DNA of 64,000 nucleotides from Minisyncoccota bacterium (GCA_041661005.1 JBAZVG010000001.1:295544-359543), one strand, 5' to 3'. Positions 2,703-19,568 are shown, counted from the first letter of the stretch. The notes: generated by a model not told the origin, from the sequence alone. Translations and numbers: made by a program.

Positions 2703-4107
2703 CACCTTAACACGAAAAAAAGAAAAATTTTCGCCGATTGAAAAGAATGAAGTCCGCATGTATACCTGTGGACCAACGGTTTACGACTATACCCATATAG
2801 GCAATCTGCGTTCCTATGTTTTCGCTGACATACTATGTCGCACCCTCAGATATGGTGGATTTAAAGTAAAACAAGTGATGAATATTACCGATATAGGACA
2901 TCTCTCTAGTGATGCAGACTCGGGCGAAGATAAAATGACAAAAGGACTTTTGCGCGAAGGCAAGGCTCTTACCCTCAAAAATATGAGAGAGCTTGCAGAA
3001 TTTTATACCGAAAAATTCAAGAAAGATTTAACAGAACTCAACATCCAAATGCCGGATGGCCTCTACTTTGCTAGTGATTATATAAAAGAAGATATAGAAC
3101 TGATACAAAAATTAGAAAAAAATAACTACACATACAAAACTAGCGACGGAATCTATTTCGATATTTCAAAAATGTCGGATTATGGCGTTCTGTGGGGCGG
3201 AAAAAGAAATTGGGATGAAGGTCATGCGAGAGTTACCGAAAATTCAGAAAAAAAGAACCCGGAAGATTTTGCGCTTTGGAAATTCAATTCAGAAATTGGT
3301 TTTGAATCTACGTGGGGAAAAGGCTTCCCGGGTTGGCACATTGAATGTTCAGCGATGGGCATAAAATTTTTAGGTGAACAGTTTGATATTCACACAGGAG
3401 GCATAGACCTTATTCCCACCCATCACACAAATGAAATAGCCCAATCAGAATCTGCAACCGGCAAAAAGCCTTTCGTTAAATTTTGGATGCATAGCGAATT
3501 TGTCGACACTGGAAATGAAAAAATGTCTAAATCAAAAGGCAATTTCTTGAGACTAGATAGCTTGAATGAAAAGAACATCAACCCCATAACTTATCGTTTT
3601 TGGCTCTTGATGGCTAGTTATCGCACAAAGGTAAACTTCGTCTGGGAAGCCCTAGAGGGCGCAGAAACGGCCTTAAAACGCCTTTATAACCTATATTTAG
3701 AACTTGACGAGGCTAAATCCGCCAAAGGCGGATCGCCCGACGCTTCTACTGAAGCGTTTAGGGGTAAGGTAAACAAAGAATATGAGAAAAAGTTCAAAGA
3801 GTTCCTAGAAGATGATCTAGATACCCCGAGAGCATTGACCGTCCTCTGGGATATATTAAAAGATGAAAATGTGACGAACGCCGATAAAAAAGCAACAGTT
3901 TTAGATTTTGACAAAGTATTGGGTCTAGGATTTGAAAATTTGAAAGAAGAAAAAATCCCAGAAGAAGTGATGAAGCTAGTAGAAGAGCGCGAACAAGCTC
4001 GTCAAAATAAAGATTTCAAAAAATCTGATGAACTAAGAAAAGAAATTAATTCGCTAGGCTATGAAGTGAAAGATACAGCCGAGGGGCAGAAGATTTCTAA
4101 GATTTAA
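2674..4107 (+). CDS. cysS: Cysteinyl-tRNA synthetase
   Basis: Class I HIGH ('YTHIGNLRSY') and KMSKS ('KMSKSKGN') motifs. 'CGPTVYDY' zinc-binding start. DALR-like C-terminus. 477 aa. Confidence 0.9.
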   Translation: MNLNKIQLYNTLTRKKEKFSPIEKNEVRMYTCGPTVYDYTHIGNLRSYVFADILCRTLRYGGFKVKQVMNITDIGHLSSDADSGEDKMTKGLLREGKALTLKNMRELAEFYTEKFKKDLTELNIQMPDGLYFASDYIKEDIELIQKLEKNNYTYKTSDGIYFDISKMSDYGVLWGGKRNWDEGHARVTENSEKKNPEDFALWKFNSEIGFESTWGKGFPGWHIECSAMGIKFLGEQFDIHTGGIDLIPTHHTNEIAQSESATGKKPFVKFWMHSEFVDTGNEKMSKSKGNFLRLDSLNEKNINPITYRFWLLMASYRTKVNFVWEALEGAETALKRLYNLYLELDEAKSAKGGSPDASTEAFRGKVNKEYEKKFKEFLEDDLDTPRALTVLWDILKDENVTNADKKATVLDFDKVLGLGFENLKEEKIPEEVMKLVEEREQARQNKDFKKSDELRKEINSLGYEVKDTAEGQKISKI

Positions 4108-5296: not shown

Positions 5297-6400
5297 TTAT
5301 ATCCCCTCTTTCTTGAGCTCTTCGATGAGCGCGCGGGATGAGCGGGAAATTTTTGAAGGCATTTTTATATTGAGTTTGATTAAGAGATCGCCACGTTTAC
5401 TTTTTGAGATAGGCACACCTTTACCACGCACTCGCAGAATTTCATTTACAGATACGCCTTCCGGAATAGTGACTTTGATTTCTCCGTCGAGGGTCTCGAT
5501 CGAATGTTCTACACCTAAAAGTGCATCAGAAAGTTTCAAATTTAAATTCATCACTAAATCATTGCCATCGCGCTTGAATACTGTATGTGGCGCCACATTT
5601 ATTTTTATATAAAGATCTCCTGTTGTTCCTTTGGAAGCCGCTTCGCCATAACCCGTCATCCGAATCATTTCCCCATCTCGGATGCCAGCCGGAATCACAA
5701 TTGAAACTTCTTCTTCCCGACGAAGCACCCCTTTACCTTTACACATCTCACAAATTTCTTTCGGCACTTCACCTGTCCCCGAACAAACTTCGCAAATTTT
5801 AGTATTGGCAATGTTGCCAAAAATTGTTCTTTTTGATTCACGAATTTTTCCTTGACCGTTACAGGTCTTGCAAGTTTCTATTTTAGAACCCACCTTCGCG
5901 CCAGAGCCATGGCAGATGAGACAATTTGACATTTTAGTAATCAAAACTTTTCTATTGGTGCCAAAAATAGAATCAGAAAAAGAAATTTGAATTTCAGTGG
6001 AAATATCTCTACCGCGTTTTTGCTCTCTCCTGCCCCCGCCCATACCACCACCAAAGAAATCACTAAAAATGTCATTCAGATTACCAAAATCAAAATCTGC
6101 ATTTCCATTTTGAAAACCACTAAAATCAAATCCCTCAAACCCACCCTGCCTCGAACCGCCGTAACCTCCGGTGGAGGCGCTTCCCATATTTTCAAATTGA
6201 AATCCATACTGATCGTATTTTGAACGCTTGGTATCATCCGAAAGAACCTGATAAGCTTCGTTTACTTGCTTAAACTTTGTTTCATTGCCTTCTTTTTTGT
6301 CAGGATGATATTTGTGCGCCAACTTATAAAAAGCCTTTTTGATATCATCCTTGGACGCGCTCTTATTTACTCCTAATATTTCATAATAGTCTTTATTCAT
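5297..6400 (-). CDS. dnaJ: Chaperone DnaJ
   Basis: J-domain ('DYYEILGV...HPDK'), Gly/Phe-rich linker, four CxxCxGxG zinc-finger repeats, C-terminal substrate domain. Confidence 0.9.
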
Positions 6401-6415
6401 AACGTTATTCCCACA

Positions 6416-7945
6416 TTATATCATAGGCTCAGCTTCCTGTGAAGCTTTTGTTTTTGGCCTTTCTTCCTTAAACACTTCTTCTGAAGCGTCGGGTGATCCG
6501 CTTTCAGCGGATTCAGCCTCTTTTTCATTTTCTTTCCCTTTAGCTTTTCCTTCAATTATCGCCTTTTCCTCAGCGCTCCTGATGATCGTAGCTTCTTCTT
6601 CGGCGATTAGTTTGGCCGCGTCGTCCTTTGGTATTGAATATTTTCTGCGAGACGCTTCGATAATTTCTTGTCGATACGACGGATGCGTCGGAGGAAGAAC
6701 TCGCAGGGTCTCAGCCGAAAATGGATCATAAGATTCTCCATCAATGGTCATTTTTATATAAAATTCCGCTACTGCCAAATTGATCATATCTTTGACGTCA
6801 AAAATTGGCGCAAATTCTGGTTTTAATTTAACTGCATCTTCACCACCGACTCTGAAACAGATTATGCTTCCTGTGTTTCCAAGGACTGCGTGCTGAACCT
6901 GTGGAAGAAGCTGTCCGATATACTGGTGCGCCATAGTTAGATTGAGCGCATATTTTCTAGCTTCAGATAAAATATTTTCAAATGTTTGAGTGACGATATT
7001 GTGGAACTCATCGATGTATAAATAAAAATCCTTACGATCTTTTTCTGGAATGCTTGCTCGCTCCATTCCCGCTTGTTTTATTTTTGTCAGGAACATTGAA
7101 CCGAAGAAAGAAGAATTTTCTTCTCCGATACGACCTTTGGAAAGGTTAATAAAAATTATTTTCTCCTGATTCATGAGTTCACTAATATCTATTTTGTTTT
7201 GTTTTTGTCCAAAGATATTTCGGAGCAACGGATCCGAAAGAAATTGCCCGAGCTTGTTCACTAGCGGGATGATAGCGTCGGTGTCAAATTTCTCCGACCA
7301 ATCGGCAAATTCGATAGCGAAGAATCTCTTCACCATGTCGTCTGTGATGTATTCCACCACTTTCTGCCTGTAATTTCTATCGGTCAGCATTGAGATCATC
7401 CCACGCATGGTGGCATGTGGATAGTCGAGAAGCGCCAAACACGTAAATCGAAAGACGTGTTCTAGGCGGGGCGTCCAGTTGGCGCCGAATTGTTTATGTA
7501 AAACTTCAATCAAGCCTTGAGTCAATTGAAATTTAAAAAGCGGGTCCACATTAGCAAGCGGATTAAACGACGCCGGAAAATCAATATCAGCCGGGTCGAT
7601 AATGCAGACATCCTCGATACGCTCTTTGGGAATATAATCCAGCATCGCATCGATCACATCACCGTGCGGGTCAATGAGACACAAGCCATGATTGTATGTT
7701 ACGTCTTGGCGAATGAAAAGTTCGAGTAATTTCGTCTTACCGACACCCGACTTTCCAACGATGTAAAGATGCCTTCGGCGATCGACGCGCTTGATGCCGA
7801 AAATAAATTTTTTTTCTTCAAGCGAAGCTACATAATTAGTGCGTCCAATGAAAGAAACCTCTTCGGGTTTCACTTTGCCAAAAACGGGCAACTCTGGCGG
7901 TGGCGGTCCGTATTTGATTATTTGCACTCGATTAGGCTTGGGCAT
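6416..7945 (-). CDS. HerA/FtsK/VirB4-superfamily P-loop ATPase (DUF87-like), paralog 1
   Basis: Walker A 'GKSGVGKT' followed by 'IDPHGD' (HerA-like DPHGE/D). Walker B 'FYLYIDEFHNIV'. 509 aa with an acidic/lysine-rich C-tail. Paralogous to 12963-15098. Confidence 0.6.
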   Translation of the reverse strand: MPKPNRVQIIKYGPPPPELPVFGKVKPEEVSFIGRTNYVASLEEKKFIFGIKRVDRRRHLYIVGKSGVGKTKLLELFIRQDVTYNHGLCLIDPHGDVIDAMLDYIPKERIEDVCIIDPADIDFPASFNPLANVDPLFKFQLTQGLIEVLHKQFGANWTPRLEHVFRFTCLALLDYPHATMRGMISMLTDRNYRQKVVEYITDDMVKRFFAIEFADWSEKFDTDAIIPLVNKLGQFLSDPLLRNIFGQKQNKIDISELMNQEKIIFINLSKGRIGEENSSFFGSMFLTKIKQAGMERASIPEKDRKDFYLYIDEFHNIVTQTFENILSEARKYALNLTMAHQYIGQLLPQVQHAVLGNTGSIICFRVGGEDAVKLKPEFAPIFDVKDMINLAVAEFYIKMTIDGESYDPFSAETLRVLPPTHPSYRQEIIEASRRKYSIPKDDAAKLIAEEEATIIRSAEEKAIIEGKAKGKENEKEAESAESGSPDASEEVFKEERPKTKASQEAEPMI

Positions 7946-7946
7946 A

Positions 7947-8237
7947 TTATTTATACTTTAACATGAATTTGTAAGAAAAAGGTTCAGCATATTTTTCTAA
8001 AATAATTCTTTCATATGGATTCAATTTATCGTAACCGAGAATAAAATTTTTAACGACGCTCCACTCTTCGCGTCCAGCCGGAATAATTTCCCTAAAATTC
8101 AGGATTGTATCAACAATGCCCAAAGCCCGGTTTTTTGCGTTATTTGCAGCCTCTATTTTTCCAGAATCATAAAAAGAAAAAAGTCTGCCTATTTCAGGAT
8201 ATATGTTTGCCATATAAAAAAGTGAATTTTTCTCCAT
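7947..8237 (-). CDS. Hypothetical protein (96 aa)
   Basis: ORF tightly packed between the ATPase and the upstream small gene, with no motif. Confidence 0.4.
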   Translation of the reverse strand: MEKNSLFYMANIYPEIGRLFSFYDSGKIEAANNAKNRALGIVDTILNFREIIPAGREEWSVVKNFILGYDKLNPYERIILEKYAEPFSYKFMLKYK

Positions 8238-8240
8238 AAA

Positions 8241-8597
8241 TTATTTCAAGTCAATAAATTTATAAATAATACTGGTGGCTTTCTTGATAATTTCATTGTT
8301 GTTTATATTCCTGGAACGATTGCCAAAATTTGGTTTTATATTAACCATTGAATCAAATTCCAAAACTCCTTCTGGATTTTCCTCAAAACGAACATTAAAA
8401 CCCCAAATATCTTCAAATTTTGAACCCGTGCTAGTTAATAGTTCAGAGTCCTCAATATGATAATCACCACCCAAAGCCACTCGACCTCCTTCGATATCCA
8501 CCGCCCCCTTTATCATCGTTCCATACCAAAATTCTGCTAACTTCTTAAGATCTTCTACGCTGATTTTATGATCTAAAATAATAATTTTCGTGTCCAT
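8241..8597 (-). CDS. Hypothetical protein (118 aa)
   Basis: ORF spaced 3 nt from the downstream gene, suggesting an operon. No motif recognised. Confidence 0.4.
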   Translation of the reverse strand: MDTKIIILDHKISVEDLKKLAEFWYGTMIKGAVDIEGGRVALGGDYHIEDSELLTSTGSKFEDIWGFNVRFEENPEGVLEFDSMVNIKPNFGNRSRNINNNEIIKKATSIIYKFIDLK

Positions 8598-8634
8598 ATA
8601 CTAGAAATATATTAGCACAATTTTGGTCTATTTT

Positions 8635-10386
8635 CTAATAAACCTCGGCTTGGTAGCATTTCTCGCAGTAGACAATCTCTGGTCGATCAGGAGCGTATGA
8701 AGTTTCGAATTCTATTTCACACTTTCCTGCCCCGTGTATATGATTTTTCTTATCGCACATACAGGATCTATGCCAAAGCTTAAGCGGATTTCTTTGCTTT
8801 TGTCTAGTGTAATGTCTGCAATTTGGACACATATGCGGCAGTGGTAGATTCATTCTTTTATAAAACGAGAGTTCATCCTTTATTATTTTGAATGCTTCTG
8901 TGCACTGTTCGTTGCATTTTCCTTTATGTTCACACTCTATAACCTTACCAATAACATCTTCACTCACTTCTCCAATATCATTTGGAATATCTTCTGTTTT
9001 AATATTTATTTTAAAAGTTCGATTTTCGCCTTCTTTCCATCTGTAACCTTGCTTTAGAGTTTCTGTTTTTGTTAATGGAAAATATTCTTGAGCTATAGTC
9101 TCGTTATAAGCAAACGGCGACAGTTCTGCTGGAAAAAATTCCCCGTACTTATAAATTTTTCCTTCTTTATCTACATATGGCATATCGTTCATATGTTTAA
9201 TAATTTTAGGAACTAATTCTGAATATTCTTCTTTCGTATATTGTTTATTCAATATGCAATACTGTTTCTGACGAAGACCAATACATCCAAAAACATTTCC
9301 ACAACCATGGGAAGCATAACTATAATAAACATCATTCCCTCCCCAAACAAATATGGTAAAAAACAATCTTGCTCCATCTGCACCCGTGTCAACACCTTCG
9401 TAAAGTTGGCTTGCATTTCCTCCGAAACCATAACCATCATAAGAATCTTCCAATTGGACTCCGCCATTTATTGCAAATTTAGTGTCTCTGATCCCTCCTT
9501 TTAGATCAAAACAAAATTTACAGTTTGAAGCATTTGCTAGATTATCTCCGGTGCAATTTTGAGCATTGTAGAAAGTAGCAAACTTCCTTATGCTTTCTCT
9601 TCTTAAATTAATAAATTTCTCCTTTATCGCATTGAATCCTTTATAGTCATGCAAATTCATTTTTTTTACTTCCTTATCATAATCTTCCTTGGAATATTGT
9701 TTATTAAAAATGCAATAAGATTTACTGCGAAGATTTACACATCCGATGCAATCTGTGCAACCTTTGCATTCATAAAGAAAATAGCAAGATACGCAGTTTT
9801 CACAGTTTTCACAAAAAACAGAACCATACATTTTTTCACACGCTGTTAAATCATAGCTTAATTCCGTATTTGAACACGCAAGAAGATCCATAGAACCTTT
9901 AGATCGAAATGTTTTTGCGCTGAACAAAATATCTTCAACTTCCCAACTTGCAAAAGTTAAGTAAGAACTACGTATTTCTCCACAATGATTGCAATAAAAA
10001 CTATTACTAATTCTGCTATTAAAAAGTGACGGAAGAGGAGCGCGCATCAACAATTCTTTCCATTGAATAAAAAATGGTTTTGAAAAATCGTAATTTTGTC
10101 CTGATTCAAGCGGATCCCATTTATCTGACCACCAAATCTCTCTTTCATAAACCTTGCACGGATTGTCAGCAGAAAATGGAGTAATTATATCTTGATCGCT
10201 GAAATCGCATTTTCGTTTATACAAAGCTCGCTCATTTCTGAAAATCATTCTCCTAACTGCCCTACACTCCGGGCAAAAAGTAGGTGGCGGGACTTTGATT
10301 TTTTCGTAAAAATTAAAATCCTCCGATTCTATCGTAAAGTCTTGTTTGCAATTTTGACATATTGTATTTTGTGATTTATACTCCAT
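8635..10386 (-). CDS. Large cysteine-rich protein (583 aa) with N- and C-terminal zinc ribbons, paralog 1
   Basis: N-terminus 'CQNCKQDFTIESEDFNFYEKIKVPPPTFCPECR'. Internal CxxC clusters ('CENCENCVSCYFLYECKGCTDCIGCVNLR', 'GCGNVFGCIGLRQKQYCILNKQYTKEEY'). A second ribbon 'CNEQC...CPNCRHY'. C-terminus '...YAPDRPEIVYCEKCYQAEVY'. Paralog of 11268-12959. Confidence 0.55.
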   Translation of the reverse strand: MEYKSQNTICQNCKQDFTIESEDFNFYEKIKVPPPTFCPECRAVRRMIFRNERALYKRKCDFSDQDIITPFSADNPCKVYEREIWWSDKWDPLESGQNYDFSKPFFIQWKELLMRAPLPSLFNSRISNSFYCNHCGEIRSSYLTFASWEVEDILFSAKTFRSKGSMDLLACSNTELSYDLTACEKMYGSVFCENCENCVSCYFLYECKGCTDCIGCVNLRSKSYCIFNKQYSKEDYDKEVKKMNLHDYKGFNAIKEKFINLRRESIRKFATFYNAQNCTGDNLANASNCKFCFDLKGGIRDTKFAINGGVQLEDSYDGYGFGGNASQLYEGVDTGADGARLFFTIFVWGGNDVYYSYASHGCGNVFGCIGLRQKQYCILNKQYTKEEYSELVPKIIKHMNDMPYVDKEGKIYKYGEFFPAELSPFAYNETIAQEYFPLTKTETLKQGYRWKEGENRTFKINIKTEDIPNDIGEVSEDVIGKVIECEHKGKCNEQCTEAFKIIKDELSFYKRMNLPLPHMCPNCRHYTRQKQRNPLKLWHRSCMCDKKNHIHGAGKCEIEFETSYAPDRPEIVYCEKCYQAEVY

Positions 10387-10491
10387 ATCTTTTTTGCAAC
10401 CTGCCCCGTAGGAAGCTCTGCTTTCCTTCGGGGTTCTGGCATTGTCGAGTTTCGCTTTTCATTTTTACCTTAAAAGTGTATCATAAAAGAC

Positions 10492-11202
10492 ATGAAATTA
10501 CATCGATTCATTGGAGATTTTGACCTATCTCAAAAAGAAGTAGAAATCACAAATCCTGAAAATATCAAACAAATAAAGGATGTTTTGCGTCTCAGAAAAG
10601 ATGAAAAAATTATTCTCTCTGACGGCAAGGGCATGAATGCGGAAGTGATCTTAAACTTGGTATCAAAAAATAAAATTACCGGCGTAGTTGACAAGGTAGA
10701 CAAATCTGTTGATGTTGAAAGTTATGGGAGGAAAAGAAAAGTAAACTTATATCTGGCAATCTTGAAAAAAGAAAATTTCGAGTTCGCGGTGCAAAAATCC
10801 GTCGAAGCTGGAGTCCACAGGATCATTCCAATAATCACGGAACGAACGATAAAGACCGGACTAAATTTCCCGCGCTTGGAAAAAATAATGATTGAAGCCA
10901 GTGAACAATCGGGCAGAAGCATTATATCCGTCTTGTCCCCCATTATGAATTTCAAAGACGCGCTTGCCGATGGGATAAACAATGAAGAAAAAGTAATTTT
11001 CCATTTAAAAAATAAATTATACGAACCGAATAAAAATGCCGAAAGTATCGGCATTTTCGTCGGGCCAGAAGGAGGATTTACAGAAAAAGAAATTTCTCTA
11101 GCAAAAGAAGCTGGTTATATTCCAATGTCTTTAGGATCCCTCACTCTGCGTGCCGAAACAGCCGCCATCATCGCGACTTACAGAACAGCCAAGGGCATCT
11201 AG
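10492..11202 (+). CDS. rsmE: 16S rRNA (uracil1498-N3)-methyltransferase RsmE (SPOUT)
   Basis: 'MKLHRF...' N-terminal PUA-like region and C-terminal SPOUT motifs ('GPEGGFTEKEI', 'SLGSLTLRAETAAIIA'). 236 aa. Confidence 0.75.
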   Translation: MKLHRFIGDFDLSQKEVEITNPENIKQIKDVLRLRKDEKIILSDGKGMNAEVILNLVSKNKITGVVDKVDKSVDVESYGRKRKVNLYLAILKKENFEFAVQKSVEAGVHRIIPIITERTIKTGLNFPRLEKIMIEASEQSGRSIISVLSPIMNFKDALADGINNEEKVIFHLKNKLYEPNKNAESIGIFVGPEGGFTEKEISLAKEAGYIPMSLGSLTLRAETAAIIATYRTAKGI

Positions 11203-11267
11203 AATAAAATTACACGATCGTATTATTTTATACTTTTACATATTTACGCCATGGATGATATATGTAT

Positions 11268-12959
11268 TCAGTAAACTTCCTGCTGGTAGCATTTTTCGCA
11301 ATACACTATCTCTGGACGGCCCGCTTCGTCGGAGCTTGAGCGAGGCGAGTCAGGGGCATAATTTGTCGTAATTTCCTTCTGACATTTGGCGCAATTACGA
11401 TTCCAGAATTTATATGGACCACGGCGAATGATGCGGTCTTGATGCCGGCAATAAAAACATTTGCGAGGTGTAGGAATATTCATTTTTTTATAAAACAATA
11501 GCTCTTGATTTATAATTTTATAATTTCTGTTACAATCTATGCATCTTAAAATTTCACTAGTGATTGAATCCTGCACATCTTTTATGTGGTCGGGAATATC
11601 TTCTGGTTTCATAGTTTCCTTCCCTTCTGTCTTTTGAATATCGTCTTCCCAGCGAAAACCTTGCGCGATAGCTTCTTCCTTAGTAAGAGGCATATTGTCC
11701 TGCGCAATTGTTTCGTTATAGGCAAATGGCGCAAGTTCGGGTGGAAAATAAAGTCCATACAAATTTTTCTCTTTTAATTCGGAAATAATTCTAGTCCTAA
11801 TCGCTTCATACTCCTCTTTAGTATATCTTTTATTTAAAATTACATATTTTCCATTTCTGACACTATCACAACCAAAGCAATATTCAGAAGAACGTAGGGC
11901 AAAAGAATAATCTACGTCGTGCGATCCGGTACTCCACCATGAACCAATGACATTACTGGAAGTTCCAACAGCAACGCATTCTAATAATAATTCACTTCTT
12001 CTGCCATGACCGATCAAATCATAACAATTCTTGGTGCGTTTGTTTGAAAAAAGAAATTTAGAGTCCTCACAAAAAGATATTTCGTATGAATTATGGCAAT
12101 TCTTTGATTCAAAAATATAATCTCCAGAAACATTTATATTCCTCAGATTGCTGTTTTCTTTTCTAGGAAAACGCATTGAAAACTTTTTAAATTGAGTGCG
12201 AAATTCTTCCATATTTTTGTAACTTCCCATAATTTCTGATATTCTTTTTTGATATTCGTCTCTAGATAATGGTTCATTGAAAAAATGATGTGATTTGTGA
12301 CGCAAATTAACGCAACCAAAGCAATTTTGGCAATCTGAACAATTCAGAAGGAAAGCGGAATCTATACAGTTATCCGCATTTTGCGCCCATATAACTCCAG
12401 AACTTGTATTAACATTTATTGCCTCATAAATCTTTTCGTCTTTGTTTGCATAATACGAATCGAACGCTTCGCGACATGAGATCATCCCTCGAGAATAAGC
12501 GCATTCTTCATTATTAGGACCTGAATTAAAAATAAAATAGCAGTTCTTGTTTCCTCCCGCAAAATTTGTATACTCGCTATTTATATTTGGACCGACATCT
12601 TCGGAAGCAAAAATGCCTGCCTTTGGAACATGAATCATTAATTCTTTCATCTGATCAAAAAAAGGCTTTTGAGGATCATAATCTTCCCCATAAGAAAATG
12701 GGTCCCACTTTTCAGAAAGCCAACAGTCTTTACAATAAACGATATAAGGAGATTTTGGACCATACATTGAGATAGTAGACTTTCCGCACATTCCACAGAC
12801 GCGATTGTAAAGATTTATTTCATTCCTAAAGAGAGCGCGCCACTTAAATCTGCATTCCGGACAATTCACGGGCACTGGCACTTTCATTTTCTCGTAAAAA
12901 GAAAGGTCATCTTTTTCTAAAATGAATTTTTGTTTACATTTTTTACAATCTTGCATCAT
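11268..12959 (-). CDS. Large cysteine-rich protein (563 aa) with N- and C-terminal zinc ribbons, paralog 2
   Basis: N-terminus 'CKKCKQKFILEKDDLSFYEKMKVPVPVNCPECR'. The ribbon repeats near the C-terminus ('CIDCNRNYKIINQELLFYKKMNIPTPRKCFYCR'). Ends '...RPEIVYCEKCYQQEVY'. Start is 4 nt downstream of the ATPase-2 stop. Confidence 0.55.
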   Translation of the reverse strand: MMQDCKKCKQKFILEKDDLSFYEKMKVPVPVNCPECRFKWRALFRNEINLYNRVCGMCGKSTISMYGPKSPYIVYCKDCWLSEKWDPFSYGEDYDPQKPFFDQMKELMIHVPKAGIFASEDVGPNINSEYTNFAGGNKNCYFIFNSGPNNEECAYSRGMISCREAFDSYYANKDEKIYEAINVNTSSGVIWAQNADNCIDSAFLLNCSDCQNCFGCVNLRHKSHHFFNEPLSRDEYQKRISEIMGSYKNMEEFRTQFKKFSMRFPRKENSNLRNINVSGDYIFESKNCHNSYEISFCEDSKFLFSNKRTKNCYDLIGHGRRSELLLECVAVGTSSNVIGSWWSTGSHDVDYSFALRSSEYCFGCDSVRNGKYVILNKRYTKEEYEAIRTRIISELKEKNLYGLYFPPELAPFAYNETIAQDNMPLTKEEAIAQGFRWEDDIQKTEGKETMKPEDIPDHIKDVQDSITSEILRCIDCNRNYKIINQELLFYKKMNIPTPRKCFYCRHQDRIIRRGPYKFWNRNCAKCQKEITTNYAPDSPRSSSDEAGRPEIVYCEKCYQQEVY

Positions 12960-12962
12960 AGT

Positions 12963-15098
12963 TTATTCCAAAATCTTTCTTAGAACATCTTCCGGCACTT
13001 CCTTGGGTTTTTTGGGAACAGGAGTTGAAACAGGAGCAGGTGTAGGAATTTCAACTTGAGGTTTGGGAACTGGTGCAGGTGTTTGGACAGGTATTTTTTC
13101 TAAAATAAGATTCTTTAAATTATTCATGTCTTCCGAACTAGCAGCGCGATCCCCGCCTTGCCTAGTCGAGGCAGGTTTGGAAGTTACAGATTCCTTCATT
13201 TTATTTTTTAGGGAATCAAGCGATACTGGTGTTTCGACTGGAGCTTGATCAGCCTTAGGCTTACTCACTTGAGGCTCTTTTACCACCGCTTTTAGCGGGG
13301 TCCCTCCATCGGCGGTGATTTTATTTAAAATATCTCTCAAAGCAGTATTTTCTCGAATTCCTGAGGACGGAACGTGAACAGGTTTTACATTTACAGACTT
13401 TGCTGGGCGGTGAGGCACAGACAGAACTCTTTTGATACTTCCAAATATTCCAGGCTTCCCTGCTGGCACAGAAGATTTATCCATGGACTTTTCTATCCTT
13501 TCAGGATATCTCTCCTTTTCCTCACCCTTCGCTCTGTCTTTCTGCTGAAACTCTATACCCAAATCAGCCAATGGCTTGTAAAACGTGGACTCATCATGCC
13601 TGATCTGGTTCTCTGAACCCTTTTCTACTTTTACTTCGCCAGATTTTATTTTCGCTATGCAATCTTTGCAATATACCGCCCTGCCTGAATCAGGCTTGAA
13701 GGGAACCGTCGTTTCTTTTTTACAAAGCGAACAAATAACCGGAAATTTTTCTATATTTCCAGTTCCGCCATCATGATCATTGCCAAGCGACATTCCACTC
13801 CAATCGTTGATTTCTCTCTCCACAACTTCTTTGGATCTGCAATACAACGCGCGTGAAGATTTGATCACTTCTTCCTCTATTTTTTTATCACCAGACTTCA
13901 CCATGGGTGGCAAAGTCTTGGCAGAAAATGGACGGGACGTCACTCCATCAATCATTAATTTCAAATAAACTTTATAGTTAGGCAAATTCACAATGTCCTG
14001 CGGTGTAAATTCTGGATCAAATTCTGATTCAAGAAATTCTGCATCGTCAGAACCAACTCTAAAGACTATCATCGTGCCGACGTTACCGAAAACGGCATCA
14101 CGCACAGCTGAACTCTTTTCTACCACCAGTTGAGCGGTGTATTGGTGTGCCACTGTCAAATTCAATCTGTATTTTCTAGCTTCAGACAAAATGCCGGCAA
14201 AAGCATCTGTGACGAAATTTTGAAATTCATCCACATACAAATAAAAATCTCGGCGATTCTCTTCGGGAATACGCACACGCTCCATGGCAGCCAGCTGGAT
14301 TTTGGTAATAATCATTCCTCCGAGTAGGCCAGAGTTGTCTTCGCCAATGCGTCCTTTGGAAACGTTCACCAAGAAAATCTTGCCCTCATTCATCATGTCG
14401 AAAATATTTATCGTGCTTTTAGACTGACCGACGACATTGCGGATGATGGAAGTGGAAAGAAACTGCCCGACTTTATTTTGGATCGGCGCAATCGCTTCAT
14501 TTCGGAATTTATCTTGCCAAATTTCATATTCATGCACCCAGAAAGCCTTGATGACGGGATCTTTTAAATTAGAAATTATTTTCTGACGGTAATCTTTATC
14601 TACCAGCAGTCGGGGAATTCCGAGAAGCGTCGTGCCGGGGGTGTCGAGAAGCGCCAAAATCGCGTTGTTTAAAATATATTCCATTCGAGCACTCCAAGCA
14701 TTCGCCCAAATTTTAGTAAAAATACCCATGAGTCCCGAAGCCACCAAATGCTTGTATTGCGGATCAATCAATTCCAAAACATTGAATCCGATATGATGAT
14801 CGGCATCAGCTGGATTAAAATAGACAACATCTTTGATACGCTCTGGCGGAATAGCCGACAGAACCGCCTCAACATTTTCTCCATGCGGGTCAACCATGCA
14901 AACTCCGTCGCCATTTTTGATGTTCTGAATAATCATATTGAACATCAAGACCGATTTACCGGTACCGGACTTTCCGAGAATATAAACATGCTGACGCCTG
15001 TCTTTGCGCTTGATGCCAAAAAGCTGATTCTTGTCACGATAAGTTGAAAGACCAAGATATGTAATTTCTTTATTTATTGGTATTTCTGGAAAATCCAT
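12963..15098 (-). CDS. HerA/FtsK/VirB4-superfamily P-loop ATPase, paralog 2, with C-terminal zinc ribbon and Pro/Lys-rich tail
   Basis: Walker A 'GKSGTGKS' + 'VDPHGE'. Walker B 'FYLYVDEFQNFV'. C-terminal 'CSLCKKETTVPFKPDSGRAVYCKDCIAKI' ribbon (~13640-13745), then a low-complexity P/K/V-rich tail. 711 aa. Confidence 0.6.
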   Translation of the reverse strand: MDFPEIPINKEITYLGLSTYRDKNQLFGIKRKDRRQHVYILGKSGTGKSVLMFNMIIQNIKNGDGVCMVDPHGENVEAVLSAIPPERIKDVVYFNPADADHHIGFNVLELIDPQYKHLVASGLMGIFTKIWANAWSARMEYILNNAILALLDTPGTTLLGIPRLLVDKDYRQKIISNLKDPVIKAFWVHEYEIWQDKFRNEAIAPIQNKVGQFLSTSIIRNVVGQSKSTINIFDMMNEGKIFLVNVSKGRIGEDNSGLLGGMIITKIQLAAMERVRIPEENRRDFYLYVDEFQNFVTDAFAGILSEARKYRLNLTVAHQYTAQLVVEKSSAVRDAVFGNVGTMIVFRVGSDDAEFLESEFDPEFTPQDIVNLPNYKVYLKLMIDGVTSRPFSAKTLPPMVKSGDKKIEEEVIKSSRALYCRSKEVVEREINDWSGMSLGNDHDGGTGNIEKFPVICSLCKKETTVPFKPDSGRAVYCKDCIAKIKSGEVKVEKGSENQIRHDESTFYKPLADLGIEFQQKDRAKGEEKERYPERIEKSMDKSSVPAGKPGIFGSIKRVLSVPHRPAKSVNVKPVHVPSSGIRENTALRDILNKITADGGTPLKAVVKEPQVSKPKADQAPVETPVSLDSLKNKMKESVTSKPASTRQGGDRAASSEDMNNLKNLILEKIPVQTPAPVPKPQVEIPTPAPVSTPVPKKPKEVPEDVLRKILE

Positions 15099-15124: not shown

Positions 15125-15412
15125 TTATTTCTCCAGTTTTTTATACAAAGTTCCTGTGATTGTGAGAATTACTAGTCCGGCTACGAGTAAATACCAAGGA
15201 TTTAAGTCCAACAATCCAAAATCTTTCATTAATCCTTTCAATCCTTCGTGTACTGTCATTACGCCAAAAAGTATCAGAAGTCCGAAAGTGATAGGGTACT
15301 TGCTTAGAACTGCCTGGGTACGCGGAGCTACTGTTTGATTTATCTTATTGGATAAATCTTCAATATGTTTTAGCATATCCAAATTTATTCTTTTTTCTTC
15401 TTGTTCGTTCAT
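15125..15412 (-). CDS. Small membrane protein (95 aa, 2 TM)
   Basis: ORF with two hydrophobic helices. A perfect palindrome sits immediately upstream. Confidence 0.45.
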   Translation of the reverse strand: MNEQEEKRINLDMLKHIEDLSNKINQTVAPRTQAVLSKYPITFGLLILFGVMTVHEGLKGLMKDFGLLDLNPWYLLVAGLVILTITGTLYKKLEK

Positions 15413-15428
15413 ACGATAATAAATTTTT

Positions 15429-15466
15429 TAGTTACGTAATGTATTACGTAATACATTACGTAACTA
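15429..15466. promoter_or_regulatory. Perfect 38-bp palindrome carrying three TTACGTAA octamers (operator-like)
   Basis: T-AGTTACGTAATGTATTACGTAATACATTACGTAACT-A is exactly its own reverse complement. TTACGTAA centres are spaced 12 bp apart. It lies 17 bp upstream of the 15412 start of the membrane-protein gene. Confidence 0.55.
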
Positions 15467-15501
15467 TTTTACAATAAAATAGCAAAAACTAAAAGCCCAG
15501 A

Positions 15502-15942
15502 TTATCTATCATGATCAACCTTGTTCTTATTTATTATTCCGACTGCCCTCGAAATAATTTTATACTTTGCTTTCAGTTCTTCAAACTTTTCAGGAGAAAT
15601 ATTTGTTTCCTTTTTTAAAGCGTTCAGCTTCTCAACAATAGGAATAAGCGCAAGTCTTGCTGGTTCTCGTACGGGATGCTTCGGTGCGTCTGCTGGCGTT
15701 AGATCAATAATAGAATTTAATTCCGCAAGAGAAAATCTGGATTCAAATATACCTACTAAAAACTCAAAGTTAGTAACTTCTTGCGCACAGTCTCTTAAAT
15801 TTTCTGGAGAAATTACTGGCTCAGGATGTCTTGCTAAATAATCTGCCAATCGTTCAGCATCTTCCTTGCCCTGTCTTTCTTTTTCGAGCCGTTTTAGTTG
15901 TTCAGGGCTTGGAGACCCCCCGATATTCATTCCTTCGTTCAT
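15502..15942 (-). CDS. Hypothetical protein (146 aa)
   Basis: Hydrophilic ORF with no recognisable motif. Confidence 0.45.
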   Translation of the reverse strand: MNEGMNIGGSPSPEQLKRLEKERQGKEDAERLADYLARHPEPVISPENLRDCAQEVTNFEFLVGIFESRFSLAELNSIIDLTPADAPKHPVREPARLALIPIVEKLNALKKETNISPEKFEELKAKYKIISRAVGIINKNKVDHDR

Positions 15943-15986
15943 AATGAAATAATACCATGTTATAGATTTTTTGGTATAATGATCTT

Positions 15987-16271
15987 ATGGGTATAGATTC
16001 AAAAGGTTTTCCAACACCCGAACAAAGAGATCCAACCCCTCAAGACTTTCAGGATTTGGAAATTAAAGTAAGCGGCTTAGGTAGAGGTAATCTTGTTCAT
16101 GAAATTGATTTCCACATGGGCATGTTAAAAAGAGTGTTTGGACTGGAAGACTCTAAGAAAAATCCCTGGCCTGAATATTTACGCAAGGATTGGGATGAGC
16201 ATGTGAGAGAAATTAATATCGTTACCAATAAAATTAAAATGGAACAGGCTAAGGAGAAAGGTTTATTATAA
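15987..16271 (+). CDS. Hypothetical protein (94 aa)
   Basis: ORF followed by a terminator hairpin. Confidence 0.4.
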   Translation: MGIDSKGFPTPEQRDPTPQDFQDLEIKVSGLGRGNLVHEIDFHMGMLKRVFGLEDSKKNPWPEYLRKDWDEHVREINIVTNKIKMEQAKEKGLL

Positions 16272-16283
16272 ATTTCAACCATG

Positions 16284-16321
16284 AACTAGCAAGAACCGTT
16301 CTTACTAGTTTCCCCTAGTTT
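16284..16321 (+). terminator. Rho-independent terminator
   Basis: AACTAGCAAGAAC-CG-TTCTTACTAGTT hairpin, then 'TCCCCTAGTTTTTC'. Confidence 0.5.
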
Positions 16322-16391
16322 TTCAAGTATAAATTCTACTGTTTCTTTCTGTGTGGACATGGTTTTTAATTTTGATAGAAAGACTAAAAAT

Positions 16392-16976
16392 TTATTTATA
16401 CTTAATAAGTAATTTGCCACGATCAATTAAATATTGCATATATACATCTCCGACTTTATTATCTCTCTCATAAAATTCAATTCTGATATTGCGCATTTGT
16501 GTATCAAAATAAATAAAATCTGATTCAAGGGGCTGACCAACTTGCAAAGACCAACAAAATTTATATTGACTATCAGAAAGTTGTCTACACATAATGTCTA
16601 AATACGCTGGTTCATGCTGAGAAATATCTCTTGTTGTGGTATTCCAATGTGTCCAATTAAGTGGGACGGGTAAAAAATTAAGTTTACCCCCATCAGTATA
16701 TGTTAACATTGCTCGCACATCTTTTGCTGGAGCTTTTCCTATATTTTTTACAATTAACCTCTTGTAAATCAGAGCTTCTTCGTGATTTTCTTGCCAAGTT
16801 TCTATTATTTCTACACCACGAATTTTTGGTTTGAAAAAATACTTTTTAATTTGATCACCAAAAATGGCAAGAATGCCTAAAACTAATGTACCTACCACCC
16901 CCCAAAGCGTCCCAGAAATGCCCAAAAAACTATCAATTACTTTCGGGTCGCTGAATGAAAAATAATGAAATGGCAT
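16392..16976 (-). CDS. Hypothetical membrane-anchored protein (194 aa)
   Basis: N-terminal TM helix ('LWGVVGTLVLGILAIFG') followed by a soluble domain. Confidence 0.45.
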   Translation of the reverse strand: MPFHYFSFSDPKVIDSFLGISGTLWGVVGTLVLGILAIFGDQIKKYFFKPKIRGVEIIETWQENHEEALIYKRLIVKNIGKAPAKDVRAMLTYTDGGKLNFLPVPLNWTHWNTTTRDISQHEPAYLDIMCRQLSDSQYKFCWSLQVGQPLESDFIYFDTQMRNIRIEFYERDNKVGDVYMQYLIDRGKLLIKYK

Positions 16977-16990
16977 ATACGAATTAAAAA

Positions 16991-17614
16991 CTATATTTGT
17001 GCTAATTTTTTTCTTTGCGCAGAAATCTCGCGCAGTTTCTTTTGTTCTTCTTCTGATAACTTATGTCCACGGTTTGGGATGATATCGTTATCTATAAATG
17101 CTTTTGTTAAGTTATCAATTATATGGATCAAGGCCATAAAATCTACTTCTGTTTTTGGTGCATCTTCTATTTTTGTACCACAATGAGCAGGGTTGTGACG
17201 GAATGTCTTAAGTGTTGAATTCAAAGATTGGACATAGGTACGCAGTTCTTTTCGTTTTGAACTTTCGATTTCCAATTCAATAAACACGCTTTCTAGAAAC
17301 TCAGAGGATTTTTCATCATTTAGAAAAGGACTAAATTTACCATATTCAACTGCATCTCGAATTAAATTTTCAGGAACACCCAGAAACGGAGCAATAGATA
17401 TTAGCCATTTCTCAAGTGCTTTATAAGCAGGAGATACTAGAAAGGAATAGTCAGACATTGAAGTATCCGCCTTAAATTGATTTATCAACCTGTATGAATC
17501 CCAAAGCCAATCAAGAATATCTTGATGATTTTCAACTAAAAATGTCTTCGTCTCGTTAGAAATTCTTTGGTATATCGGGTGATCTGGCTTCCATGGAGAT
17601 GTCCATTTAGTCAT
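16991..17614 (-). CDS. Hypothetical protein (~207 aa) immediately downstream of dnaK
   Basis: The longest ORF (to 17683) overlaps the dnaK 3' end by 47 nt. The internal Met at 17614 removes the overlap. Not GrpE-like. Confidence 0.4.
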   Translation of the reverse strand: MTKWTSPWKPDHPIYQRISNETKTFLVENHQDILDWLWDSYRLINQFKADTSMSDYSFLVSPAYKALEKWLISIAPFLGVPENLIRDAVEYGKFSPFLNDEKSSEFLESVFIELEIESSKRKELRTYVQSLNSTLKTFRHNPAHCGTKIEDAPKTEVDFMALIHIIDNLTKAFIDNDIIPNRGHKLSEEEQKKLREISAQRKKLAQI

Positions 17615-17636
17615 TGTTGTTTTTATGGTAACTATT

Positions 17637-19568
17637 TTACTTCGCTTCGCTTTCAGGCTTCTCACCTTCTTTGAACTCCGCATCCCGCGCCTGCTCTGAG
17701 CTTGTCGAAGAGTCCTTTACTTCCGCATTTTGTTCTTCTGGAGTCTTTGGGGACTGTGGAGTGGCGCCAGCTTTTGCCATCGCCTCGCCTATTTTAGACA
17801 TTTCAGCGGAAAGCTCTTCAGTTGCCTTCTTGATCGCCTCGCCATCAGTGCCATCTTTGACCCCTCGGAGCGCGGTGATTTTCGCATTCACGCTATCTTT
17901 TAACCCAGCATCTATTTTGTCGCCATTATCTTTCAAAGCTTTTTCGGCGGTGTAAATAATCATCTCCGCAGTATTTTTTACATCCACAACTTCTTTTTTC
18001 TTTTTATCTTCTTCAGCATGAAGTTCCGCATCTTTTTGCATTTTCTTTATGTCTTCATCTTTGAGCCCGGAGCTAGCTTCTATTTTTATTGATTGAGTTT
18101 TGCCGGAAGCTTTGTCTTTTGCAGTCACATTTAAAATTCCATTAGCATCAATGTCAAAAGAAACTTCAACTTGAGGCATACCTCGAGGTGCTGGTGGAAC
18201 TCCGTCTAGAATAAATCGGCCCAAAGATTTGTTATCGGAAGCCATCGGACGCTCTCCTTGGACTATATGGATCTCAACACTAGTCTGATTATCTGCAGCT
18301 GTAGAAAAGACTTGAGATTTAGAAGATGGAATTGTTGTATTTCTTTCAATTAATTTTGTCGCTACTCCTCCCAAAGTTTCAATACCTAAAGAAAGTGGAA
18401 TAACATCAAGCAAGAGCACATCGCGCACATCTCCAGCGAGCACGCCGGCTTGCACCGCAGCGCCGAGTGCGACGACTTCGTCAGGATTGATGGACATATT
18501 TGGCTCTTTACCAAAAAGATTTTTTACCGCAGCCACGATAGCCGGCATTCTGGTCTGTCCACCCACCATGATGATTTCATTTATTTCATTCATCTTGAAT
18601 GGAGAGGCAGCGAGAGCTCGTTTAGTTATTTCAATAGAACGATCAATCAAATCTTTGGTGAGAGATTCCAAAGTAGCGCGAGACATTTTCATAAGCAGAT
18701 GCTTCGGGCCTCCGGCATCTGAAGTGATAAACGGTATATTTATTTCCGCCTCTATAGTAGTAGAAAGTTCATGTTTCGCTTTTTCAGCCGCTTCTCGGAG
18801 TCTCTGATGCGCTAGTGGATCTTTGGTTACATCAATACCAGATTCTTTCTTGTATTCTTCCGCGATCCACTTCACTATCTTTCGATCAATATCACCTCCA
18901 CCCATGTGACTGTCGCCATCGATAGACTTCACTTCTATCACATCCCCGCCTATCTCGAGTACCGACACGTCGAAAGTTCCTCCACCGAAATCATACACCA
19001 CCACTTTCTCATTTTTCTTTTTATCAAATCCATAAGCAAGCGCCGCCGCCGTAGGCTCGTTGATAATGCGTTTTACATCTAGCCCCGCGATAGCGCCAGC
19101 ATCTTTAGTCGCTTTTCTTTGCGCATCATTAAAATATGCAGGCACAGTGATGACAGCTTCGGTTATTTTTTCCCCCAGTTTTGCTTCAACATCCGCTTTT
19201 ATTTTTTGTAAAATCATCGCAGAAATTTCTTCCGGTCGATAAAATTTGTCCATCATTTTGACTTTCACTCCCCCGCCATCCCCTGTTTCAATTTTGAATG
19301 ACGTTGTAGCTTGGTCTTTTTGCACTTCTGGATCATCAAAACGATGCCCCATAAAACGCTTGATTTCCGCGATTGTATTTTCCGAATTGGTTATCGCCTG
19401 ACGTCTCGCGAGAAGTCCGACAATACGATCGCCATTTTTAGCAGTTGCGACCACCGAAGGTGTAGTGCGATTGCCTTCAATATTTTCAATTATCTTCGGC
19501 GCGCCACCTTCGATGATAGCTACCGCTGAATTTGTTGTACCCAAATCTATACCTATTATTTTTGACAT
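17637..19568 (-). CDS. dnaK: Chaperone DnaK (Hsp70)
   Basis: '[17 protein letters not shown]', '[10 protein letters not shown]', '[14 protein letters not shown]' and other Hsp70 signature segments. 643 aa. Confidence 0.92.

Follow-up and report, generated by a model that had tools for sequence, protein, structure and literature searches.

Genes of the locus

A stretch of 64,000 nt from a Minisyncoccota bacterium (JBAZVG010000001.1:295544-359543), referred to here in its full length as the window, contains a locus at which two P-loop ATPases (ATP1 and ATP2) are encoded next to two large cysteine-rich proteins (CYS1 and CYS2). The four open reading frames (ORFs), all on the minus strand, have been confirmed by translation where the original prediction had placed them. 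The paralogy claimed within each pair is equally clear, with 45% identity between ATP1 and ATP2 across 433 aa (E=6e-132) and 37% identity between CYS1 and CYS2 from end to end (E=4e-121). The cassette lies between dnaK and dnaJ, two genes which are usually adjacent and which are here about 11 kb apart; the same split layout has been found in at least 14 other loci, and dnaJ comes after ATP1 in 18 loci. No further copies of the ATPase or CYS genes occur elsewhere in the window. The ATP2 stop codon (12963-12965) and the CYS2 ATG (12957-12959) are separated by 3 nt, the 4 nt reported earlier being the difference between the coordinates. A promoter-like element (TTCACA-17-TATAAT with an upstream TG) was observed at 6443-6415, within the 3' end of ATP1. 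Since the counts obtained in a promoter and terminator scan were no more than 2 standard deviations from those of shuffled sequences, the scan was not used for operon calls. Positions and assignments of the individual features are collected in Table 1.

Two ATPases related to coupling proteins

The ATPase motifs quoted in the original prediction are present in the translations, namely the Walker A motif (GKSGVGKT or GKSGTGKS), (I/V)DPHG(D/E) and the Walker B motif DFYLY(I/V)DEF. Both proteins score past the Pfam gathering cut-offs of two families of type IV coupling proteins (T4CPs), with ATP1 matching T4SS-DNA_transf (PF02534) at 33.3 bits (cut-off 20.1) and TrwB_AAD_bind (PF10412) at 27.2 bits (cut-off 20.5), and ATP2 matching PF10412 at 39.6 bits (E=3.9e-10) and PF02534 at 27.8 bits. 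The PF10412 match covers profile positions 12-312 of 387, with about 240 residues from Walker A to Walker B. TraG-D_C passes its cut-off of 22 bits in ATP2 only (25.2 bits, against 19.2 in ATP1), and TrwB (1e9r; E=1.8e-5 to ATP2) is the only sequence relative of the ATPases in the PDB. The NCBIfam models of coupling proteins remain far under their cut-offs (SXT_TraD, 49.8 vs 366 bits; conju_CD1115, 49.7 vs 250; TraD, 35 vs 648). The earlier placement in the HerA/VirB4 superfamily needs to be changed: the DUF87 match is marginal (24.5 bits in ATP1 and 33.2 bits, E=7e-8, in ATP2, vs a cut-off of 23.2), the VirB4 model TIGR00929 yields 19.3 and 11.2 bits vs a cut-off of 643, and the coupling protein profiles fit better. 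No transmembrane (TM) segment was detected in either ATPase, with Kyte-Doolittle maxima of 0.96 and 1.23 in a 19-residue window (threshold 1.6). Judging from their sequences, the two proteins are best placed as soluble, TM-less relatives of the T4CPs VirD4, TraD and TrwB.

ATP1 and ATP2 are ancient paralogues with different architectures. ATP2 has a C-terminal zinc finger which scores well above the cut-offs of PF23477 (46.8 vs 27 bits) and TIGR04272 (49.5 vs 36 bits), followed by a tail of about 230 aa which is rich in K, P, V and E and whose terminal motif, KEVPEDVLRKILE, is kept in orthologues. ATP1 is without the finger, and its tail ends in AEPMI, with a consensus (A/P/S)EP(M/L)I which is conserved in about 37 of 41 ATP1-type proteins.

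Architecture of the cysteine-rich proteins

The N-terminal ribbon CxxC..FYEK..VP.P..CPECR, its C-terminal repeat and the tail common to CYS1 and CYS2, RPEIVYCEKCYQ(A/Q)EVY, were all recovered in the translations, as originally described. In CYS2 the domains follow the order finger A, finger B, solenoid 1, solenoid 2, a domain with a near-invariant PFAYNETIAQ motif, finger A' and finger B'. The internal duplication that had been noted for these proteins has been substantiated by hhalign, both for the fingers (A vs A', E=1e-21; B vs B', E=3e-13) and for the two halves of the solenoid (residues 113-262 vs 263-400, E=2e-36). Among 204 family members, the finger A residues C5, C8, C33 and C36 are kept in at least 98%, and the positions conserved in at least 90% comprise most cysteines of fingers A, A' and B', along with several Tyr, Asn, Asp and Arg residues and no histidine. 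The central clusters, previously given as CxxCxxC, are indeed present, in the form of CxxCxxCxxC runs, but few of their positions are conserved: a single Cys in the first CFGC motif (C213) and the G-C of the second (G363-C364) are the only ones to reach 90% or more. Two arginines, R505 and R509, are conserved after finger A', and fingers A and A' carry net charges of +4 and +7, respectively. The CYS proteins contain 22-47 cysteines, are near neutral (family median isoelectric point, pI, of 6.5) and have neither a TM segment nor a signal sequence.

Finger B is confined to the CYS2 subfamily; it is degenerate in CYS1, and its cysteines are gone in the CYS1 subfamily alignment. Residues 50-83 of CYS2 match PF23477 with 17.1 bits, below the cut-off of 27, and many CYS2 orthologues have a precomputed match to this family. 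The finger of ATP2 is homologous to finger B (hhalign 97%, E=1e-10 for CYS2 finger B) and to finger B' (96%). At the other end of the protein, 491 of the 509 members have a chain that stops exactly 5 residues past the last CxxC[YFW], the consensus being Q-(Q/K)-E-V-(Y/V/I).

A first AlphaFold2 model of CYS2, built on close orthologues, was poor in the centre; a second, built on 150 sequences each no more than 52% identical to CYS2, reached a predicted local distance difference test (pLDDT) score of 90.8 and a predicted template modelling (pTM) score of 0.91. This second model has two N-terminal and two C-terminal fingers around a duplicated beta-solenoid, followed by the small PFAYNETIAQ domain. 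As modelled, the CYS proteins are cytoplasmic proteins with four predicted zinc fingers and a beta-solenoid core. No family in Pfam, NCBIfam, PADLOC or the PDB covers them beyond weak finger matches, and searches of the PDB with CYS1 and with the CYS profile returned nothing but a weak LIM-like match to the C-terminal fingers (E=0.04). Pfam and NCBIfam likewise gave no match to Radical_SAM, Fer4 or SPASM, and the central CxxCxxCxxC runs differ from the CxxxCxxC and CxxCxxCxxxCP cluster motifs of Fe-S proteins, which speaks against a radical-SAM or ferredoxin enzyme, the alternative against which the original prediction had set its own reading.

Size and age of the CYS family

With CYS2 as query, 5,343 proteins (90% clustering) were retrieved, every one of them annotated as "hypothetical" and derived from a metagenome-assembled genome of the Parcubacteria group, and the CYS profile, when compared to 1.84 billion representatives, detected 5,060 clusters (50% identity) at E<=1e-3 and 2,104 at E<=1e-30. 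The best 150 clusters are 530-602 aa each, with 149 of them matching as a single full-length stretch, and scores of up to 727 bits are obtained for CYS1 orthologues from other genomes. At least 558 CYS loci were found in a scan of one genome per species, and 80 of these were sampled with flanks of up to 10 kb. The 80 CYS-centred loci hold 220 family members, with up to 12 per 21-kb locus. On contig JALLOO010000001.1 (positions 1-32,413, covered by two overlapping loci, L080 and L016), at least 18 consecutive co-directional CYS genes span 32.4 kb; this array has one 1.5-kb gap and continues past the fetched stretch. Adjacent CYS genes are co-directional in 91 of 91 pairs; the gap has a median of 6 nt, and overlapping or abutting genes account for 32 of these pairs.

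The median identity of a CYS protein is 42% to its best paralogue in the same locus and 61% to its best relative in another genome, and for 97% of the copies the closest relative belongs to another genome, not to their own array. This indicates long-maintained subfamilies, not recent amplification or diversifying selection. By sequence comparison, CYS1 and CYS2 represent two ancient subfamilies of an old multigene family. The duplicated two-gene module of the original prediction is not upheld, given the arrays of 18 or more genes, the cross-genome relationships of the copies and the old paralogy of the ATPases. Single-linkage clustering of subfamilies at 48% identity proved too coarse, with 118 of 239 proteins falling in one group. 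A strict pairing of CYS subfamilies with ATPases could not be demonstrated: the gene after ATP2 is of the CYS2 subfamily in 10 cases and of the large, unresolved CYS1-containing cluster in 8.

In at least nine loci, for example at positions 8166-8474 of L003, a gene for CutA1 (divalent-ion tolerance, PF03091) lies within a CYS array or borders on one, an association that is suggestive given the approximately four zinc sites per CYS protein. Two CYS genes were also encountered on a 277-kb contig labelled Burkholderiales (JAMPXW010000001.1), with 31% G+C in the fetched stretch, which is almost certainly a misbinned contig of the candidate phyla radiation (CPR).

Linkage of ATPase and CYS genes

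The CYS-centred sample contains 51 ATPase genes, distributed over 33 of the 80 loci. In order to counter selection bias, 80 ATPase-centred metagenome loci were added, for a total of 160 loci, in which 47 co-directional ATPase-CYS neighbour pairs occur. Two layouts recur. The first, which is that of the window, reads grpE-dnaK-ATP2-CYS2-(CYS)n-(rsmE)-ATP1-dnaJ. The second reads ATP1-(CYS)n-ATP2 without dnaK and dnaJ, and here ATP1 often comes after a protein with Sigma70_r4 and HARE-HTH domains and two membrane proteins of about 450 and 170 aa. An ATPase-(CYS)n-ATPase arrangement accompanied by dnaK and dnaJ was found in L007, L009-L011, L042, L081 and others, and one without them in L003, L064, L073 and L099. 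The presence of this arrangement in both settings indicates that the link outlives the surrounding synteny.

The gap between ATP2 and CYS measures no more than 10 nt in 13 of 19 cases, and 1-4 nt in many genomes, which bears out the operon-like spacing that had been proposed for the window. Within the ATPase-centred sample, 10 of the 14 ATP1-containing loci also hold a CYS gene, as against 5 of the 66 in which ATP1 is missing (Fisher p=1.4e-6, not corrected for phylogeny). Co-occurrence of the two families in other genomes, as had been expected, is thus repeated, co-directional and of operon-like spacing. An invariable pairing is not sustained: among the closer ATP2-type genes with usable flanks in the ATPase-centred sample, only about half directly adjoin a CYS gene. 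The linkage is therefore frequent and operonic, but not obligatory. In the profile libraries and literature searched no description of the pairing was found, in line with the original statement that it did not correspond to a described system.

More distant loci and the DUF8128 protein

In more distant loci there is a single, finger-bearing ATPase of the ATP2 type, 55-63% identical to the ATP2 core and 44-49% identical to ATP1. It is preceded by a membrane protein with a DUF8128 domain, the start and stop codons of the two genes abutting or overlapping. The DUF8128 assignment (PF26449) derives from a precomputed Pfam table, the local Pfam copy having given no match. These genes form part of a block, secD-secF-(sigma-r4/HARE-HTH)-DUF8128-ATPase-pgk-DHH-rnhA, with no CYS gene within 10 kb. 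Blocks of a Sigma70_r4/HARE-HTH protein, DUF8128 and ATPase have been observed at positions 7634-11596 of L161, in L143, L157, L096 and L109, and in approximately 45 other ATPase-centred loci, often placed straight after secD-secF (in L161 also secA), with pgk, a gene for a DHH phosphoesterase and rnhA following. In the absence of ATP1, the finger-bearing ATPase thus pairs with DUF8128 instead of CYS. The same membrane protein is the one found near ATP1 in the layout that lacks dnaK and dnaJ, and it may constitute the missing membrane anchor of the soluble ATPases. DUF8128 and its companions do not occur in the 64-kb window. The named relatives of the distant loci belong to Candidatus Nealsonbacteria, a taxon assigned by NCBI to the Parcubacteria group and not outside it, so that the family is claimed for this group and not across all Patescibacteria.

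Conservation of the cassette

Median identities to the protein of the window, as calculated over the fetched loci, are 83% for ATP1, 81% for DnaK, 75% for DnaJ, 70% for ATP2 and 59% for RsmE, and identities of 84-93% are reached by the best 120 of the ATP1 homologues that were scored in the protein collection. Being as conserved as DnaK, ATP1 shows the behaviour of a core gene and not that of a mobile or defence gene. A tblastn search with CYS2 against phage and plasmid collections gave no match. PADLOC 2.0 produced no match for CYS1, CYS2, DUF5674 or the small ORFs and assigned no defence system, with only weak matches of the ATPases to mad8 (40-51 bits) and HerA, and domain searches of the neighbours disclosed no nuclease, SIR2 or other effector. 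The suggestion of a conflict system in the original prediction is contradicted by this conservation, by the lack of phage or plasmid matches and by the housekeeping surroundings. The locus is a core chromosomal cassette of bacteria of the Parcubacteria group (GTDB Paceibacteria).

In a survey of 2,918 Patescibacteria genomes, 5,713 VirD4-type homologues have been counted, approximately 2 per genome, with 148 of them near virB4, and its authors say that exaptation cannot be excluded (PMC12102498). ATP1 and ATP2 are probably the same genes as these orphan homologues, the two paralogues of the window fitting the count per genome.

Neighbouring genes

Between the two CYS genes lies rsmE, whose position and orientation are the same in at least eight loci; it is a syntenic interloper, outside the module. 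The 96-aa ORF next to ATP1 (Table 1) has no match in Pfam, NCBIfam or PADLOC, and together with the adjoining DUF5674 gene it recurs within six further ATPase/CYS loci (L001, L019, L042, L045, L084 and L111). A cysteinyl-tRNA synthetase gene (2674-4107) is a constant neighbour of the block in 10 loci. This adjacency probably reflects synteny only, and is notable beside proteins with 5-6% cysteine.

The interval between ATP2 and dnaK (15125-17683) contains small ORFs without a counterpart at that position in related loci and may be a small variable islet in the conserved block. These include a 95-aa ORF with two TM segments directly upstream of ATP2 (15125-15412), which was considered as a conserved anchor and rejected, as the small ORFs found there in other loci are unrelated, and a 230-aa ORF (16991-17683) with a weak match to the DNA-binding domain of the RnlA toxin (E=2.5e-4). 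Elsewhere in the window, an unusual LexA-methyltransferase fusion of 621 aa (44527-46392) combines a LexA DNA-binding domain, Peptidase_S24 and an N6/N4 DNA methylase, and a 768-aa ORF (39641-41947) matches the squalene-hopene-cyclase C-terminal repeat (E=3.6e-8), hopanoids being unexpected in this genome.

Table 1. Genes and protein features of the ATPase/CYS locus, in positions of the window.
Feature	Position	Strand	Assignment and remarks
dnaJ	5297..6400	-	By translation; flank marker of the conserved block, starts 15 nt past the end of ATP1
ATP1	6416..7945	-	Soluble T4CP-like P-loop ATPase, 509 aa
96-aa ORF	7947..8237	-	Found always with the DUF5674 gene
DUF5674 protein	8241..8597	-	118 aa; PF18924, E=2.4e-22; recurrent accessory gene of these loci
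CYS1	8635..10386	-	583 aa; predicted zinc-finger/beta-solenoid family, subfamily without finger B
rsmE	10492..11202	+	16S rRNA m3U1498 methyltransferase; Methyltrans_RNA, E=1e-39; TIGR00046, 137.6 bits vs cut-off 41
CYS2	11268..12959	-	563 aa; canonical family member
CYS2 fingers A' and B'	11289..11543	-	aa 473-557, then the fixed QQEVY tail; hhalign
CYS2 finger B	12723..12797	-	aa 55-79; CxxC-x17-CxxC; PF23477, E=0.0045
CYS2 finger A	12852..12947	-	aa 5-36; CxxC...FYEK...CPxCR; zf_Tbcl-like, PF13451, E=0.012
ATP2	12963..15098	-	Soluble T4CP-like ATPase, 711 aa; C-terminal treble-clef finger
ATP2 zinc finger	13650..13748	-	aa 451-483; CxxC-x17-CxxC; PF23477, TIGR04272
dnaK	17637..19568	-	By translation; upstream flank of the conserved block dnaK-ATP2-CYS...ATP1-dnaJ

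A possible partnership and its alternatives

The observed co-location of the genes, the finger domain shared by ATP2 and the CYS proteins and the conservation of both families suggest, tentatively and with somewhat less than even confidence, a functional partnership in which the CYS proteins are clients or adaptors docking on ATPase rings. The conserved C-terminal tails of ATP1, ATP2 and the CYS proteins are also counted in its favour, as are the co-directional CYS-CYS pairs, the association of CYS genes with ATP1, the arrangement that is kept without dnaK and dnaJ, and the orphan VirD4-type homologues for which exaptation has been raised. In such a partnership the two ATPases would form ring translocases, as their superfamily membership implies, with the CYS proteins acting as clients or specificity adaptors. 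Docking could take place by way of the treble-clef finger type that ATP2 carries, the length-invariant CYS tail, or both. The rigid solenoid might serve as a subfamily-specific recognition surface, in which case the old CYS subfamilies, numbering at least ten, would offer different cargos or targets to the motor, and DUF8128, from outside the window, would tether the machine to the membrane.

Several observations weigh against this proposal. No ATPase gene was found inside 10 kb in 47 of the 80 CYS-centred loci, 28 of which 80 hold a single CYS gene, and four loci (L086, L096, L108 and L109) hold adjacent ATP1 and ATP2 genes and no CYS gene. The ATPases are without a TM anchor, and no genes of a type IV secretion system (T4SS) were detected among the ORFs of the window that were scanned. 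It is also unlikely that proteins with a stable fold and several zinc sites would be passed through a secretion channel, a point which touches the client half of the proposal. Adjacency alone is furthermore weak evidence because of the long-range synteny of these genomes, where rsmE, dnaK, dnaJ and the cysteinyl-tRNA synthetase gene (cysS) are also constant neighbours.

It is this synteny, extending with equal constancy to a permease gene and rplU, that would make the arrangement a matter of frozen gene order, with the CYS proteins and the ATPases being independent housekeeping components without a common function. The many CYS genes and arrays that are far from any ATPase, and the loci with both ATPases yet no CYS gene, are consistent with this explanation. 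Nonetheless it appears rather unlikely, considering that the link between ATPase and CYS genes is kept in the four loci where dnaK and dnaJ are gone, that ATP2 and CYS lie 1-4 nt apart in many genomes, that the two proteins have a finger domain in common and that the presence of ATP1 and of CYS genes is associated.

A nucleic acid-handling complex as put forward in the original prediction, with a ring ATPase pumping DNA or RNA and CYS proteins which bind, select or process it, for instance in DNA uptake or segregation, is regarded as unlikely. DNA pumps are included in the FtsK/HerA/T4CP superfamily, and the TrwB_AAD_bind match, a weak match to the DNA-translocating ATPase CedD, the basic fingers A and A' and the conserved R505 and R509 all point in this direction. 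The CYS proteins as a whole, however, are near neutral, and no nuclease, helicase or recombinase domain has been detected in them or in their constant neighbours. In addition, binding to proteins is as frequent among treble-clef fingers as binding to nucleic acids.

The tandem paralogues beside T4CP-type genes, with their strictly conserved C-terminal module and 5-residue tail, also bring to mind an array of secreted effectors, by analogy with the bep genes of Bartonella, in which the CYS proteins would be delivered to a host through a patescibacterial T4SS and the ATPases would recognise the C-terminal module. Effector families usually turn over faster than is seen here, with CYS orthologues being 55-60% identical across candidate phyla and the paralogues ancient. 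Such a role also fits poorly with the roughly four structural zinc sites of each CYS protein, with the absence of signal sequences and TM segments from these proteins, and with ATPases that have no membrane anchor and whose genes are not linked to virB4. T4SS genes have been reported to be essential for the epibiotic growth of the one patescibacterium tested, a result cited in the survey, but the t4cp gene was not essential in this one available transposon sequencing (Tn-seq) study (PMC12102498). All in all, an effector array is very unlikely.

A HerA-type mobile or defence island, or a redox or Fe-S enzyme family, to which the weak PADLOC matches of the ATPases and the 30-35 cysteines per CYS protein might have pointed, is already largely refuted and extremely improbable in view of the DnaK-level conservation of ATP1 across lineages (83% identity), the missing phage, plasmid, PADLOC (for CYS), Radical_SAM, Fer4 and SPASM matches, the neighbours without nuclease, SIR2 or effector domains and the fact that only 2-3 central cysteines, and no histidine, are conserved family-wide beyond the fingers.

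Returning to the partnership of CYS proteins and ATPases, its furthest-reaching form, an unrecognised lineage-defining machine of Parcubacteria in which an exapted coupling-protein motor of ATP1 and ATP2 rings, tethered by DUF8128, would be served by at least ten CYS adaptors, is quite improbable. Were it true, the machine would select host-derived macromolecules for import or factors for export, it would be central to the episymbiotic lifestyle, and it would be unlike any described secretion, uptake or defence system. The Patescibacteria/CPR account for a large share of bacterial diversity, yet a role is known for only a minority of their conserved, lineage-specific genes. In streamlined genomes, a family as large as CYS, with at least 32 kb of uninterrupted coding in one small genome, should be important. 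Approximately two VirD4-like ATPases per genome were left unexplained in the 2025 survey (PMC12102498), and the linkage to CYS genes provides a first handle on the role of these orphan secretion-type ATPases by naming candidate partners for them.

Comparison with known systems

Among known systems, the T4CPs (VirD4/TraD/TrwB; PF02534, PF10412) resemble ATP1 and ATP2 in their P-loop core, the distance of about 240 residues between the Walker motifs, the Pfam scores past gathering, the match to TrwB (1e9r) and the disordered C-terminal tails with a conserved terminal motif, a motif which in TraD serves TraM. They differ in that ATP1 and ATP2 have no N-terminal TM domain, score no more than 50 bits against NCBIfam T4CP cut-offs of 250-650, and are extremely conserved chromosomal core genes, with a treble-clef finger in ATP2 which the classical T4CP models and structures matched here do not have. 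A scan of the ORFs lying between 5 and 20 kb of the window, and of the ten largest between 22 and 64 kb, revealed neither a relaxase nor a T4SS component (VirB4, VirB6 and others). The HerA (DUF87) systems, such as HerA-NurA, SIR2-HerA and DUF4297-HerA, have in common with this locus the ASCE superfamily and a ring ATPase beside a dedicated partner; unlike theirs, the CYS partner is neither a nuclease nor an NADase, no PADLOC system matches, the neighbours of the ATPase and CYS genes contain no NurA, SIR2 or DUF4297 domain, and the locus is core and not a variable island.

The Bartonella VirB/VirD4 system with its tandem bep array and the Xanthomonas X-Tfe proteins, with their VirD4-interacting domain, have paralogues with a conserved terminal module beside a coupling protein gene. 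The likeness to the CYS arrays is one of analogy only, there being no relation in sequence or fold, and the CYS proteins are apparently zinc-stabilised, ancient and slowly evolving. Membership in zinc finger families is more direct: the ATP2 finger is a bona fide member of zf_Tbcl_2 / CxxC-x17-CxxC (PF23477, TIGR04272), fingers B and B' are profile-related to it, and finger A resembles zf_Tbcl (PF13451). These families nevertheless account for under 30% of the length of a CYS protein and tell nothing about the solenoid or the PFAYNETIAQ domain. With regard to the predicted solenoid, the scores to other beta-solenoids (curli CsgA, insect and plant ice-binding proteins, left-handed beta-helix (LbH) acyltransferases) indicate a common architecture only. 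Unlike those proteins, CYS are cytoplasmic, capped by zinc fingers and without LbH catalytic residues, and they have no Hexapep or curlin match in Pfam, which sets them apart from Hexapep-type acyltransferases and gamma-carbonic anhydrases.

A literature search on the finger families, DUF8128 and Cys-rich families of Parcubacteria found nothing relevant, and the accessible portion of the Patescibacteria survey makes no mention of two paralogue types, a zinc finger, DUF8128 or Cys-rich neighbours (PMC12102498). With respect to the libraries and literature searched, the ATPases were already known as orphan T4CP homologues, and what is new is their division into two paralogue types, the finger of ATP2, the pairing with DUF8128, and the size, age, architecture and ATPase linkage of the CYS family.

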